Below, one piece after another: positions 7,780 through 13,843 of a stretch of DNA of 64,000 nt (positions within the stretch are counted from its first letter, which is position 1; each line of letters starts with the position of its first letter). The stretch covers positions 384,001 to 448,000 of the forward strand of contig CBDEUS010000002.1 in assembly GCA_965243395.1 (NCBI GenBank), in the 5' to 3' direction. Position numbers and translations under genes: made by a program. This stretch comes from Gammaproteobacteria bacterium (lineage in GTDB: Bacteria > Pseudomonadota > Gammaproteobacteria > UBA4575). A model generated the notes under the pieces. It searched no databases. It was not told the DNA's origin and saw only the letters and a program-made list of their open reading frames with translations.

Positions 7780-9996
<2,217 letters not shown>

Positions 9997-10038: not shown

Positions 10039-10082
10039 TTATAAATTATATTATTTATATTGTAATAATCGAATATTTCAAT
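10039..10082 (-). promoter_or_regulatory. Candidate OxyR operator upstream of katG
   Basis: ATTG-N7-CGAT-N7-ATAT resembles OxyR ATAG-N7-CTAT-N7-ATAG; 24/30 identical in the core to the site at 11969-12012. Confidence 0.7.
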
Positions 10083-10308: not shown

Positions 10309-10402
10309 ACTATCTGGCAATTCCGCTGTCCTAGAATCCTTGCTTCCTTAGACCGGTAATTTTGCGCCCCTAGCTTTCACTAGGTTTGCCCTTTTCAGTA
10401 GT
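10309..10402 (-). ncRNA. c-di-GMP-I (GEMM) riboswitch aptamer
   Basis: Minus strand AAAAGGGCAAACCTAGT-GAAA-GCTAGGGGCGCAAAATTACCGGTCTAAG..CTAGGACAGCGGAATTGCCAG matches the GEMM-I hallmarks; P1 ACTACTG/CAGATAGT. Confidence 0.92.
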
Positions 10403-10478: not shown

Positions 10479-10605
10479 GTTTTTCTCAACTACCGCTCAT
10501 CTCAACGGTTAAAAATTCATTTTTAATCAGAGCCTTATATGCATTCACGAATGAGTGGTGCAATATGCCCGATGAAAATAAATTGTATAACTGTAGTTTT
10601 TAACC

Positions 10606-10649
10606 ATCTGAAAATTAGATTGCTATCATGAAAACAATCAAATTTACTT
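10606..10649 (+). promoter_or_regulatory. Candidate OxyR operator/promoter upstream of ybaN
   Basis: 27/32 identical to the distal part of the site at 11969-12012 (GATT.CTATCAT..AAA.AAT.AAATTTACTT). Confidence 0.65.
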
Positions 10650-10706
10650 GTGGATATCAAAGCTGCAAAATTTGTGAATAATTTAATTTACATTGTGGCG
10701 GGAACA

Positions 10707-11114
10707 ATGAAAAAAATACTTTACAACTCTATAGGTGGAATCTCGCTTAGTTTAGGTATTGTAGGTGCTTTTTTACCATTGTTACCTTCTACTTGTTTTG
10801 TTTTATTAGCCGCGTGGGCATTTGCTAAATCTTCGCCCGCATTTCATGCTTGGCTAATGTATAAGTCGCCCTTTGCACAGTCAATTCAAGATTGGCAACA
10901 ACATCGGCTTATCCCTATAAGAGTGAAATGGATAGTAACAATTTCAATTGTTGCCTCTTATTCCATTACCCTTGTATTAATTGAAAATGTATATGTGTTA
11001 GCAGCACTGGGTGCAGGTTTGCTTGCTTTATTGGGATACTTACTTTCTAAGCCTGCAAGTATTGAGTCAACTACTTACCAGCACACTCCAGAATTACATC
11101 GGCCAGTAATTTAA
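10707..11114 (+). CDS. ybaN: YbaN (DUF454) family inner membrane protein
   Basis: LGIVGAFLPLLPSTCFVLLAAWAFAKSS motif; ATG 10707 preferred over GTG 10650. Confidence 0.85.
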   Translation: MKKILYNSIGGISLSLGIVGAFLPLLPSTCFVLLAAWAFAKSSPAFHAWLMYKSPFAQSIQDWQQHRLIPIRVKWIVTISIVASYSITLVLIENVYVLAALGAGLLALLGYLLSKPASIESTTYQHTPELHRPVI

Positions 11115-11970
11115 ATTCATGTTTTCTAACACTAGACTTACGCCAGGCAAGACCAATTTCGCGATATGATTTATCTTTTAAAACCTTCGTTTGAACTTTA
11201 GTGTTCTTTAACAAGCCACTATCGATTGCCATTTGTGGAATAAATGTTACGCCTAGGTCACTATCCACCATCTGTATAAGACTGTATAGACCACTGGCGG
11301 AAAATTTACTTATCTTTGCTTTGCGTCCCAAACTGCAGGCACTCAATGCATGATCACGCAAGCAATGCCCATCTTCTAATAATAATATCGCTTCTTTATT
11401 AAGTTTGTTTGGTGAAAAATTATCTGGGTCAATCAATACTGTATCTTTTTTATATGCGAGCTTGAATGGGTCATTATAAATTGATGTGGTTTCGGTATTC
11501 TTAAGATCGAATGGAAGAGCAAGTAAAAGTAAATCTAGTTCGCCATCTAGTAATAATTCGTGAATTTTTTTTGTTTGTTCTTCTTTTAGGTAAAGCTCTA
11601 ATTTAGGAAATTTCTTGCGAATTTTTGGCAAAATCTTGGGTAATAAGAAAGGTGCAATAGTCGGTATTACACCCATTTTAAGCACTCCGCTTAGAGGTTC
11701 TTGTACAGATTTTGCGATATCGACGATTCCTTCAATATCAAAAATAGCTAACCGCGCTTGTTGTGCTACCAGCTTTCCTGCAGAGGTAAACACCACGCTA
11801 CGGTTGGTGCGATCAACCAAGCAAACATTCAATAATTCCTCTAGATCCTTAATGGCTACACTAAATGCTGACTGGGTAACAAAACACGCCTCGGCTGCCC
11901 GGCCAAAATGCAAGTGCTTTTCCAGAGCAATCAAGTAGCGAAGTTGTTTAACAGTGGGGAGATTAGCCAT
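11071..11970 (-). CDS. oxyR: OxyR-type LysR peroxide-sensing regulator
   Basis: LysR HTH; GVIPTIAPFLLP; LLEDGHCLRDHALSAC retains both redox cysteines; next to katG. Confidence 0.92.
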   Translation of the reverse strand: MANLPTVKQLRYLIALEKHLHFGRAAEACFVTQSAFSVAIKDLEELLNVCLVDRTNRSVVFTSAGKLVAQQARLAIFDIEGIVDIAKSVQEPLSGVLKMGVIPTIAPFLLPKILPKIRKKFPKLELYLKEEQTKKIHELLLDGELDLLLLALPFDLKNTETTSIYNDPFKLAYKKDTVLIDPDNFSPNKLNKEAILLLEDGHCLRDHALSACSLGRKAKISKFSASGLYSLIQMVDSDLGVTFIPQMAIDSGLLKNTKVQTKVLKDKSYREIGLAWRKSSVRKHEFKLLADVILECAGK

Positions 11971-12012
11971 CTATAAAAACGATTACTATCATATAAATAA
12001 TGAAATTTACTT
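11969..12012 (+). promoter_or_regulatory. Candidate OxyR operator overlapping the oxyR start and a divergent promoter
   Basis: Two T-N11-A units; homologous to the katG and ybaN sites; TTTACT (12006) and TAAGAT (12028) are promoter-like hexamers. Confidence 0.65.
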
Positions 12013-12039
12013 ATAGCAAGAATTGCTTAAGATAGCTAG

Positions 12040-12164
12040 CCATAGAAACTAGGTTAAAGGATTTTCATTGCTCTGATGTGTAATTTATAAAACTCTGAAG
12101 ATACTCCTCCCTCCCAACTCCCTATTTTCTTTAGATATTACATCCATCAGAGCAATGTTTTTTT
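12040..12164 (+). ncRNA. Candidate small RNA divergent from oxyR (long hairpin, C-rich loop, U-tail)
   Basis: Perfect 13-bp stem CATTGCTCTGATG/CATCAGAGCAATG (12066-78/12145-57), inner stems, loop CTCCTCCCTCCCAACTCCC, then T7; no ORF; 5' end inferred. Confidence 0.6.
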
Positions 12165-12170
12165 AAGCCT

Positions 12171-12728
12171 TTACTGTTGAGACTCCATGACTTGCTGTGC
12201 TCGTTCAACGTAATCTTGATAAGCGGGAATCGCAATTGCGGCCAATATTCCAATCAAGAATAATGGAACAATCAGTCCTGTAATAATCAACAGTGGTGAA
12301 TTCTTTTCAGGTTGCAAGCCATAGTTATTTGATCCCTTTGTACCAGGCCATAAAAGAACATAAAGGCCAAAGATGATTCCAACAATAGGTATAAATATAA
12401 ATAACTGCCACCAACCGCTCTTATCTAAATCATTTAACCTGCGCTTCATTAAAATGATGGAGAAAATTAGTAAGGGTAAATAGAAAACTAGTACAAGTAA
12501 CACGCCCGCAGTTTCTGAGCCCCCAGTACTGGACGCGAAAATAGGAATCAAGATCGCAGCCGCTATACCTATAATGACCACCGAAACCATTGTGGCAAGC
12601 ATTCCATAGGCCAAGTATCTTAATCTGCCAATTCTGCCATTTACGGCGAATATTTTTGGTTGGTAGGTATCTGATGACGAGGTTGTAGTGACAGACTTCG
12701 GGCTTTCATAAGGATTTACAGCTTCCAT
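12171..12728 (-). CDS. DUF805 membrane protein with C-terminal pilin-like helix
   Basis: GRIGRLRY and KRRLNDLDKSGW..PG..G.N.YG motifs; ends in ILAAIAIPAYQDY. Confidence 0.85.
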   Translation of the reverse strand: MEAVNPYESPKSVTTTSSSDTYQPKIFAVNGRIGRLRYLAYGMLATMVSVVIIGIAAAILIPIFASSTGGSETAGVLLVLVFYLPLLIFSIILMKRRLNDLDKSGWWQLFIFIPIVGIIFGLYVLLWPGTKGSNNYGLQPEKNSPLLIITGLIVPLFLIGILAAIAIPAYQDYVERAQQVMESQQ

Positions 12729-12820
12729 AAATCTCTCCTTTTAAATTGGAATGAGAATTTGTTCTAGTTACCTAGAACAAAAGGAATAATACCCTGATTA
12801 ATCTGCCAACGATGTAATGA

Positions 12821-13405
12821 TCAGTGAATAATATCCAAAAATTCTAATACTTCATCAGCTGTTGCCCGATCTCCGTGATTATCACTTACTTTTGCAAACT
12901 GTATATAGCCATCATGGTCAATAACAAACGCCGCGGGATACGCTGTTTCATTTGGATCATTCCATCTAAGTTTTAACTGATTAGTAATTTTATAATCCTG
13001 GTCTAAAACAAAAATTAAATTATTTGGTAAATCAACTTTTTCTTCTAACGGCGCAGTAAATTCTTTGGCGCGTTTTTCTAAGTTTTTTACTTTACCTGGA
13101 TAAATAAATACAACCGGTGTATTTCTTTGTGCTTCAAATGCTTCAGCTTTGGCAATATACCCAGCAACTTGGGTAGAACAAATTGGGCACTGACTACCAG
13201 GAAAGCCGCGCAACATTATTAATACGACGGATCCTTTTTCAACTAATTTAGATAACTTGAATTCTGCACCATAGATGGTGGTCCCGGTAATTTCGCCTAT
13301 TTTGCTGCCTTCTTCAGGACCTATCTTTAAGTCTTTTGTGTGTGCAATGCTAGACGATAATAGTAATGCGCTTAAAAATATAAAAATATGCATGATTTTT
13401 TTCAT
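12821..13405 (-). CDS. Exported peroxiredoxin-like (AhpC/TSA, redoxin) protein
   Basis: Signal peptide; RGFPGSQCPIC (CxxC); YPAAFVIDHDG. Confidence 0.78.
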   Translation of the reverse strand: MKKIMHIFIFLSALLLSSSIAHTKDLKIGPEEGSKIGEITGTTIYGAEFKLSKLVEKGSVVLIMLRGFPGSQCPICSTQVAGYIAKAEAFEAQRNTPVVFIYPGKVKNLEKRAKEFTAPLEEKVDLPNNLIFVLDQDYKITNQLKLRWNDPNETAYPAAFVIDHDGYIQFAKVSDNHGDRATADEVLEFLDIIH

Positions 13406-13465
13406 AGGATTACCTTAAATTGTTTACCAATAATCTGATGGCCTTAATCGACAATGGTTCTACCG

Positions 13466-13843
13466 CTAATCAAATCTTTTCAGCTTTTCAATGTTTTGCT
13501 CCCAGTTTTTGCCGTCGAACTGTTCTACTGGGTACGAACTAACATCAAAATCATCTAAACAACGTGCATTTACACTTACACCATTTGGGTGAGATCTTGG
13601 AATATAAAAAGACTTAACACCACAGATTTTACAAAAATGATGTTTTGCCTCATGTGTGTCAAATGTATATGTAGAATAACTTCCTTCGCCAGTTAACAGT
13701 TTAAATTTTTCTTTTGGAACAATTAAATGCAGGTAAGCTGTTTTTGAGCAAATGGAACAATTACACTCAACCAAATTAGTGCCCTCAGGTACATCAATTT
13801 CAAATTTAATTGCACCACAGTGACAACCACCTGTATTAATCAT
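13466..13843 (-). CDS. GFA (CENP-V/Mss4-like) family protein
   Basis: GGCHCG..CNCSIC..FCKICG. Confidence 0.9.
   Translation of the reverse strand: MINTGGCHCGAIKFEIDVPEGTNLVECNCSICSKTAYLHLIVPKEKFKLLTGEGSYSTYTFDTHEAKHHFCKICGVKSFYIPRSHPNGVSVNARCLDDFDVSSYPVEQFDGKNWEQNIEKLKRFD

Follow-up and report, generated by a model that had tools for sequence, protein, structure and literature searches.

We analysed a 64,000-nt stretch of DNA (hereafter the window) from an uncultured, marine-type gammaproteobacterium of the UBA4575 lineage (contig CBDEUS010000002.1, positions 384,001 to 448,000), in which the 200-bp gap between oxyR and a DUF805 gene contains a long hairpin. A reading made from the letters alone (the sequence-only reading) had proposed that this gap encodes a small RNA (sRNA), divergent from oxyR and induced by peroxide, whose exposed C-rich loop blocks ribosome-binding sites. 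Positions are given in window coordinates; G000 denotes the genome of the window, C1 and C2 its contigs, and the other G numbers its relatives. The genes flanking the gap are the following.

11071 to 11970, minus strand: oxyR, encoding a LysR-type peroxide sensor of 299 amino acids (aa), the divergent neighbour of the predicted sRNA (NCBIfam, PDB sequence and Pfam matches)
12171 to 12728, minus strand: DUF805 gene, convergent with the predicted sRNA

The 299-aa product of the first gene is an OxyR by sequence: among NCBIfam models it matched OxyR NF008361 best (E 3.2e-68), with 230 bits against an equivalog cut-off of 329 bits, the best match in the PDB sequence search was the OxyR chain 7l4s (E 5.7e-71), and Pfam recognised HTH_1 and LysR_substrate. 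The protein keeps a C-x8-C pair within HCLRDHALSAC, whose cysteines we take to be the redox cysteines. The gap had been described as free of open reading frames (ORFs), which held for the plus strand, where no ORF of at least 30 aa was found, but not for the minus strand, where one 40-aa TTG frame (12131 to 12253) overlaps the end of the DUF805 gene. A small protein was excluded as the product of the gap by this lack of a plus-strand ORF of at least 30 aa; the only ATG frame noticed inside the predicted sRNA has 4 codons and, by reading, is not kept in G012. A repeat or mobile element was also excluded, as the hairpin element is single-copy in the 2.58-Mb genome. The predicted sRNA is made up of the parts listed here.

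12040 to 12164, plus strand: predicted sRNA of about 125 nt, its start placed at the −10 hexamer plus about 7 nt (± 3 nt)
12047 to 12062, plus strand: single-stranded 5′ tail segment, complementary to positions −36 to −20 of a porin leader (cofold)
12066 to 12078, plus strand: 5′ arm of the outer (terminator) helix (fold, covariation)
12094 to 12101, plus strand: 5′ arm of the inner stem, UCUGAAGA, with its partner UCUUUAGA at 12128 to 12135 (minimum-free-energy structure)
12096 to 12109, plus strand: seed UGAAGAUACUCCUC, complementary without mismatch to 14 nt of the porin start, from the Shine-Dalgarno sequence to the A of AUG
12102 to 12127, plus strand: 26-nt loop carrying CUCCUCCCUCCC and AACUCCC, predicted unpaired and the best-conserved part
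12145 to 12157, plus strand: 3′ arm of the outer helix (fold, covariation)
12158 to 12164, plus strand: U7 tail of the intrinsic terminator (T-runs after the helix in 17 of 17 homologues)

The outer stem (12066 to 12078 with 12145 to 12157) is a perfect 13 bp, and a second stem pairs TGTAAT (12079 to 12084) with ATTACA (12137 to 12142), both as described by the sequence-only reading, which had left the second without coordinates. Higher up, the structure had to be redrawn: instead of a GAAGATA/TATTTTC stem closing a 19-nt loop, the energy-minimal stem was UCUGAAGA/UCUUUAGA, closing a loop of 26 nt that carries CUCCUCCCUCCCAACUCCC. Folding, one of the checks that had been proposed, gave −34.4 kcal/mol for the plus strand of 12030 to 12170, compared with −21.1 ± 3.4 kcal/mol for shuffled sequences (z −3.86), and none of 200 shuffles folded as well. 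The run of seven T at 12158 to 12164 is found on the plus strand only, as stated earlier. A tail of the U7 type is also typical as an Hfq-binding 3′ end. The genome carries an hfq gene (102.4 bits), and ProQ, which was also looked for in the genome, was not found.

A BLAST search with 11960 to 12175 against 41 relatives returned strong matches (E < 1e-10) in 15 genomes, G000 included. From an alignment of 15 homologues we built a covariance model (R1), which found exactly one copy in each of 17 of the 56 genomes of the family; the order comprises the same 56 genomes. The G000 copy matched at 12034 to 12163 (G000:C2:396034-396163) with 120.3 bits. By genus, the model was found in 14 of 15 genomes of the window's genus (G000 included), in both genomes of a second genus and in the single genome of a third, and in none of the 38 genomes of eight other genera. 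A degenerate pattern run over 185,579 species genomes, which under-counts because the long forms exceed its gaps, recovered six stretches, all of them members already known. G001, a complete genome of the window's genus, contains oxyR with a different upstream region. GC-rich relatives (L036 to L039; OxyR identity 78 to 79%) have a different, short spacer without the RNA, running directly into a convergent gene read as glmS.

Where it occurs, the RNA is linked to oxyR: it adjoins this gene divergently in 16 of 17 loci, and in the remaining one the contig ends 22 nt away from the match. Downstream, the RNA converges with DUF805 in 11 loci; in 5 others a redoxin gene comes directly. Since this downstream neighbour changes while oxyR stays, the RNA belongs with oxyR and not with DUF805. 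In G011, the oxyR match (L121, G011:C1:1954207-1957292) is split into two overlapping parts (query 1 to 264 and 258 to 299), which may reflect a frameshift or an assembly error; the adjoining sRNA is intact.

Covariation, measured on an alignment of 17 sequences, bore out the stem as a conserved structure. The 12-bp outer helix of this alignment is paired in 95.1% of its 203 cells, and compensatory changes on both sides occur at 6 of the 12 pairs (16 cells). The covariation score was 0.284, against 0.175 ± 0.017 after shuffling, with none of 500 shuffles as high. As a control, sliding the 3′ partner by 1 to 3 columns lowered the pairing to only 28 to 42%.

The alignment also carries signals of strand. 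The 8 nt after the helix contain 5 to 7 T in all 17 sequences, and the 8 nt before it contain 1 to 6 A. Among the helix cells, 11 are G·U, which would be mismatches on the minus strand, and 3 are A·C, which would be wobbles there. Both the T-run and this asymmetry point to the plus strand and, together with the promoter described below, support the earlier claim of a plus-strand unit divergent from oxyR. A function of the minus strand, with the hairpin lying in read-through from DUF805 to oxyR and acting there on processing or stability or as a regulator rich in G, would be compatible with a stem that folds on both strands and with the shared orientation of the two genes. However, the minus strand of 12030 to 12170 folds no better than shuffled sequences (z −1.36; 17 of 200 shuffles as good), its hairpin is not followed by a U-run, the G·U cells favour the other strand, and 5 loci have the element but not DUF805. 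We regard this explanation as extremely unlikely, and consider the plus strand as the one that would be transcribed into the sRNA.

The fill between helix and loop varies widely among homologues, from near nothing, in RNAs of some 80 nt, up to roughly 90 additional nt. The best-conserved stretch of the RNA is GAAGAUACUCCUCCCUCCCAACUCCC, which lies in the loop. The core of the loop is predicted to be unpaired with a probability of 1.0 in G000, at least 0.78 in 16 of 17 homologues and 0.5 in G005; for comparison, the mean over the whole RNA is 0.44 to 0.61. The exposure of the C-rich loop, as anticipated by the sequence-only reading, is thus predicted in most homologues, and the loop sequence itself is conserved. 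The motif GAAGA is conserved too; it pairs downstream in the long forms, and upstream or nowhere in the short ones. Its retention despite a changing partner argues for a role beyond structure.

A helix followed by a U-run has the form of a terminator, and the gene beyond it is convergent, so the hairpin could merely terminate or insulate, stopping stray divergent transcription from the oxyR promoter, with a loop that has no function of its own. Against this, what would be the terminator "loop" spans 53 to 130 nt, and across three genera no sequence of the locus is better conserved than its C-rich core, while stem and fill vary. In addition, a dedicated conserved promoter precedes the hairpin. 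We consider this explanation very unlikely. We also rejected the class of plain intrinsic terminators for the element: the stem and the U-run fit, but the long "loop" with a conserved core and the lack of an upstream gene on the same strand do not. The control elements found upstream of the hairpin, and their counterparts at two neighbouring genes, are listed below with these genes.

11980 to 12010, plus strand: operator core, a putative OxyR site abutting and overlapping the −35 hexamer (similarity to the katG and DUF454 sites; conserved in relatives)
12006 to 12011, plus strand: −35 hexamer TTTACT (conserved in homologues; TTAACT in G014)
12028 to 12033, plus strand: −10 hexamer TAAGAT, after a 16-nt spacer (TAnnAT in 17 of 17 homologues, by reading)
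10041 to 10071, minus strand: operator core before the katG promoter (−35 TTTATA, 17-nt spacer, −10 TATTAT)
10617 to 10647, plus strand: third copy of the operator core, before the DUF454 gene
7780 to 9975, minus strand: katG
10650 to 11114: DUF454 gene

The positions of the −35 and −10 hexamers place the start of the sRNA near 12040. When the 31-nt operator core was used as the sole query over about 5.16 million positions of the genome, the best non-self matches were the sites upstream of katG and of the DUF454 gene, with 25 of 31 letters each; the next best matches reached 23 of 31, twice. This confirms the operator motif that the sequence-only reading had seen before both katG and the hairpin. 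At katG (TTTATA) and at the sRNA (TTTACT), the operator stands in the same register relative to the −35 and −10 hexamers, and the DUF454 site keeps this register as well. This shared register indicates that the sRNA promoter is built like that of katG, a classic OxyR-activated gene, and suggests that OxyR would bind and activate it.

Other sites resembling the operator were noticed. The DUF454 copy (10600 to 10672) includes the operator and the −35 region, is 78% identical over 50 nt and resembles the oxyR site even in the bases that form the start codon there, which suggests either a duplication of the control region or that DUF454 shares the regulon. An operator-like site at about G000:C2:703392 (plus strand), with 22 of 31 letters in common with the sRNA core, lies directly after a CAT and may represent the divergent control region of another regulator gene.

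Among sequencing runs, none of RNA was listed for 11900 to 12400; of three presumed RNA runs and one DNA run compared with the region, just the DNA run, whose contig may be the source of this very DNA, gave cover, which speaks neither for nor against transcription. Three points tell against the transcription of the sRNA or its control by OxyR. The OxyR site is defined solely by the similarity among three sites of one genome; a simple promoter scan missed the proposed sRNA promoter and listed instead a plus-strand site at 11964 to 11992; and the operator could serve the autoregulation of oxyR alone. In that case the sRNA would be real and not activated by OxyR, being constitutive or answering to another signal. 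It is common for LysR-type regulators to bind the divergent promoter region of their own gene, and the operator lies just 10 nt from the oxyR start codon. Nevertheless, the register of the operator is that of a textbook OxyR-activated gene, and in 16 of 17 loci oxyR is the neighbour that the RNA keeps, while the gene on its other side varies. An sRNA outside the control of OxyR consequently appears rather unlikely to us, and activation by OxyR is the reading that we retain.

To search for sites on which the loop could act, it was compared with the start regions of all 2571 genes delimited by a crude ORF caller of our own. Because the 16S rRNA of this genome ends in the standard CACCUCCUUU, the loop is an anti-Shine-Dalgarno look-alike, in agreement with the proposal that it is complementary to GGAG-type sites. 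One start region stood out, that of the gene below.

G000:C2:468967-470289, minus strand: candidate target porin gene, beyond the window at a distance of 74 kb from the sRNA

The product of this gene has a signal peptide and an aromatic C-terminal residue. Searches against Pfam, NCBIfam and PDB sequences gave nothing for it. Its predicted fold is a beta-barrel (pLDDT 63.6, pTM 0.65), for which the best Foldseek match was Omp32 (E 1.6e-14; TM 0.71 normalised to the target) among 247 matches with E ≤ 0.001, and the Atlas comparison assigned it to Porin_4 clusters with a score of 0.98. The structure model thus suggests a general porin of the 16-strand type.

Positions 12096 to 12109 of the sRNA and the porin start share a perfect 14-nt complement that runs from the Shine-Dalgarno sequence to the A of AUG. 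This was the longest among the 2571 start regions; the next longest, of 10 nt, occurred in 7 of them. A complement of 14 nt was attained by 2 of 1000 fully shuffled loops, and by 9 of 1000 shuffles that retained the CUCCUC core. When full-length molecules were cofolded, the porin mRNA ranked first of 2570 with −14.6 kcal/mol (mean −5.1, sd 2.2). As the cofold cannot use the hairpin loop, it constitutes an independent test of the porin as a target. It placed 16 intermolecular pairs between the 5′ tail (12047 to 12062) and the leader (−36 to −20). The seed duplex amounts to −22.2 kcal/mol and the tail duplex to −15.4 kcal/mol; opening the sites costs 5.2 and 6.2 for the former and 1.6 and 3.0 for the latter, so that the net energy is about −10.8 kcal/mol at each of the two sites. 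The tail–leader pairing was matched by 0 of 300 shuffles in G000, 2 of 300 in G012 and 9 of 300 in G002, whose tail sequences differ. The 24-mer of the porin start was present in 12 of the 56 genomes with up to 3 mismatches: 9 exact, G005 with 1 mismatch, and two G023 copies with 1 and 2.

Several observations weigh against the porin as the direct target. The gene starts on which its ranking rests depend on the crude ORF caller, and the runner-up of the cofold, at −14.1 kcal/mol, is barely behind. In 6 of the 9 genomes the tail pairing did not surpass that of shuffled sequences, and the porin start is invariant, so that it offers no covariation between sRNA and target. The distributions of the two elements also diverge: of the 12 genomes with the 24-mer, 10 have the sRNA, and G019 and G023 have none, whereas the 24-mer was not found in 7 of the 17 genomes that bear the sRNA, several of which are fragmented metagenome-assembled genomes. 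G014 and G022 retain the porin site though the sRNA seed has drifted. Moreover, the porin start forms a small hairpin of its own, whose arms covary in other genera, and this hairpin alone could explain the conservation of the site. On balance, the odds that the porin is a direct target seem to us about even, and the general mode, in which the loop pairs with ribosome-binding sites, is somewhat more likely.

As for other sites that the loop might reach, GGAGTTGG, the exact complement of the CCAACUCC within it, has 59 copies in the genome, 10 of them in predicted Shine-Dalgarno windows, and GGAGGTGA has 34, 1 of them in such a window. By reading, several of the genes with either motif have N-termini that resemble signal peptides or lipoprotein signals. 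These genes may be a secondary target set, or merely reflect a local preference in ribosome-binding sites. We considered on this point that the RNA could be a decoy, that is, an anti-Shine-Dalgarno mimic that dampens strong ribosome-binding sites broadly or titrates a protein or G-rich RNA; both the resemblance of the loop to the 3′ end of the genome's own 16S rRNA and the many envelope-protein genes with GGAG-rich sites complementary to it, together with the Shine-Dalgarno copies of GGAGTTGG, would agree with such a role. However, a single-copy sRNA is unlikely to titrate all strong ribosome-binding sites, the 14-nt match and the second site on one mRNA point to a specific target, and a mimic would not need the conservation of GAAGAUA beside the C-run. 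We therefore judge a decoy unlikely, and favour an sRNA that pairs with individual mRNAs.

Other candidates were set aside. The remaining start regions with matches of 9 to 10 nt, which include those of two identical 449-aa binding-protein genes and of the genes for a secreted protein of 570 aa and a protein of the outer-membrane type of 435 aa, were at the level of shuffled loops. As a target in the manner of GsrN, katG was rejected, its leader offering just AGGAGA. A scan of loop duplexes over the whole genome returned mostly G-rich coding stretches and was not used. The two 449-aa genes (G000:C1:591754-593103 and C2:1003823-1005172) encode secreted binding-protein-like products whose first 45 residues are identical, and their start regions are near-identical (GGAGGAGTACAC ATG), which looks like a recent duplication across both contigs.

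We then compared the element with known RNAs. Rfam gave no match at E ≤ 10 in 11000 to 13500, none at the gathering score over the 64-kb window, and none at E ≤ 1 in the 16 homologous loci. In the absence of any match, the OxyS family (RF00035) included, the RNA is not OxyS by homology, as the sequence-only reading had supposed. It nevertheless shares with OxyS a gene divergent from oxyR with a common control region, an arrangement found here in 16 of 17 loci, as well as presumed activation by oxidised OxyR, a 3′ end of the Hfq type and action in trans on translation initiation, which are predicted in our case. The differences are that OxyS has three stem-loops and belongs to Enterobacteriaceae, whereas this RNA has one long hairpin with a C-rich loop, another lineage and another candidate target, the porin. 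A stress-induced sRNA that represses a porin is also known in Escherichia coli, where MicF acts on ompF. Like MicF, the RNA would mask the site at which ribosomes bind the mRNA of a general porin and thereby lower the permeability of the outer membrane. The two RNAs are unrelated, however; the regulators of MicF are SoxS, MarA and Rob rather than OxyR, and in our case the seed lies in a hairpin loop and the porin target is predicted.

The comparison with the cuckoo (CcsR) RNAs made by the sequence-only reading stood as an analogy, but the features that define this family were absent. In PMC4615179, cuckoo RNAs are described as 2 to 4 consecutive hairpin modules of 24 to 50 nt, each with a loop bearing the CCUCCUCCC motif; the loops measure 9 to 27 nt, and all the RNAs found came from alphaproteobacteria, where most adjoin the same conserved gene, whose function is unknown. 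The present RNA resembles them in its exposed loop with CUCCUCCC, which agrees with 8 of the 9 letters of that motif and is partly anti-Shine-Dalgarno, and, following the earlier reading, in a link to oxidative stress. It differs in that all 17 homologues have a single hairpin and one loop with C-rich motifs. The hairpin measures 92 nt in G000 and 62 to 150 nt in homologues, although the 26-nt loop of G000 would fit; the hosts belong to a gammaproteobacterial order, and the neighbour is oxyR. Membership was rejected on the modules, hairpin size, lineage and neighbour. According to PMC5869019, GsrN of Caulobacter has a C-rich loop that binds a G-tract in mRNA leaders and a role in peroxide survival; it depends on sigma-T, is not induced by peroxide and activates katG. 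A C-rich loop for G-rich leaders and a peroxide context are common to both RNAs, the difference being that ours is linked to OxyR.

The C-rich-loop anti-Shine-Dalgarno sRNAs are a functional class and not a homology family; the trait that characterises them, a conserved unpaired C-rich motif complementary to ribosome-binding sites, is predicted here. A literature search for an OxyR-linked C-rich sRNA or an analogue of OxyS, which did not extend to supplements, yielded nothing matching. In its predicted features, the locus represents an RNA family that is new but functionally of a known kind, an analogue at the OxyS position with a cuckoo-like anti-Shine-Dalgarno effector.

The neighbourhood contains another RNA element. 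A c-di-GMP-I riboswitch aptamer (RF01051, 80.8 bits) lies at 10313 to 10400 on the minus strand, with a platform reaching to about 10249, in the 675-nt spacer between katG and DUF454. It is on the strand of katG, about 240 nt upstream of the katG promoter, and is not followed by an ORF of at least 30 aa. Its segment 10350 to 10340 can pair with 10259 to 10249, enclosing a C/U-rich stretch (10305 to 10283) that is partly like the sRNA loop; the stretch is 80 to 92% conserved across the genus. A second copy with the same platform is located at about G000:C1:793385-793502 on the minus strand (L143), where U7 comes after the 3′ arm and, by reading alone, a convergent gene comes next. This copy looks like an orphan riboswitch ending in its own terminator, a candidate ligand-gated small RNA. 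Both orphan riboswitches appear to be followed by a C/U-rich stretch in the loop of a terminator hairpin, the same design as in the sRNA. A literature search on trans-acting c-di-GMP riboswitch RNAs gave nothing relevant among the matches listed.

Every part of the sequence-only reading that could be checked on sequence was borne out. Taken together, we infer that about 12040 to 12164 of the plus strand is a stand-alone sRNA gene, transcribed divergently from oxyR, controlled by OxyR and acting through its loop on ribosome-binding sites; we assign to this joint reading a probability of roughly 0.6. A promoter of its own, of the sigma-70 type, would drive a trans-acting sRNA, and oxidised OxyR bound at the operator would switch it on in peroxide stress, the same site serving the autoregulation of oxyR. 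The transcript would consist of a short unstructured 5′ tail and one long hairpin, whose covarying base and U7 form the predicted intrinsic terminator and whose top would display the unpaired C-rich sequence. This loop would pair with ribosome-binding sites of the GGAG type and block initiation, probably with Hfq. On the porin mRNA it would cover the Shine-Dalgarno sequence through the start codon, and in this species the 5′ tail would bind about 10 nt further upstream on the leader, giving a two-site clamp. Shutting off porin translation would likely lower the permeability of the outer membrane under peroxide.

Among sRNAs under the control of OxyR, textbooks have to our knowledge long featured OxyS alone, a system restricted to enteric bacteria. 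A bolder proposal is that this order independently re-invented the oxyR/oxyS arrangement, with a peroxide-induced two-site clamp on the main general porin that limits the entry of H2O2, and that the two orphan c-di-GMP-I riboswitch transcripts are ligand-gated trans-acting RNAs with the same type of effector; as a whole, we hold this to be doubtful. The locus offers a testable triple, namely the operator, the 14-nt seed and the two-site porin leader, and the covariance model R1 could seed a new RNA family. A non-homologous RNA with another effector module at the OxyS position would make the arrangement of a sensor gene plus a divergent riboregulator a recurrent one, and would connect peroxide sensing with the control of a porin in bacteria for which metagenomes are the sole source.

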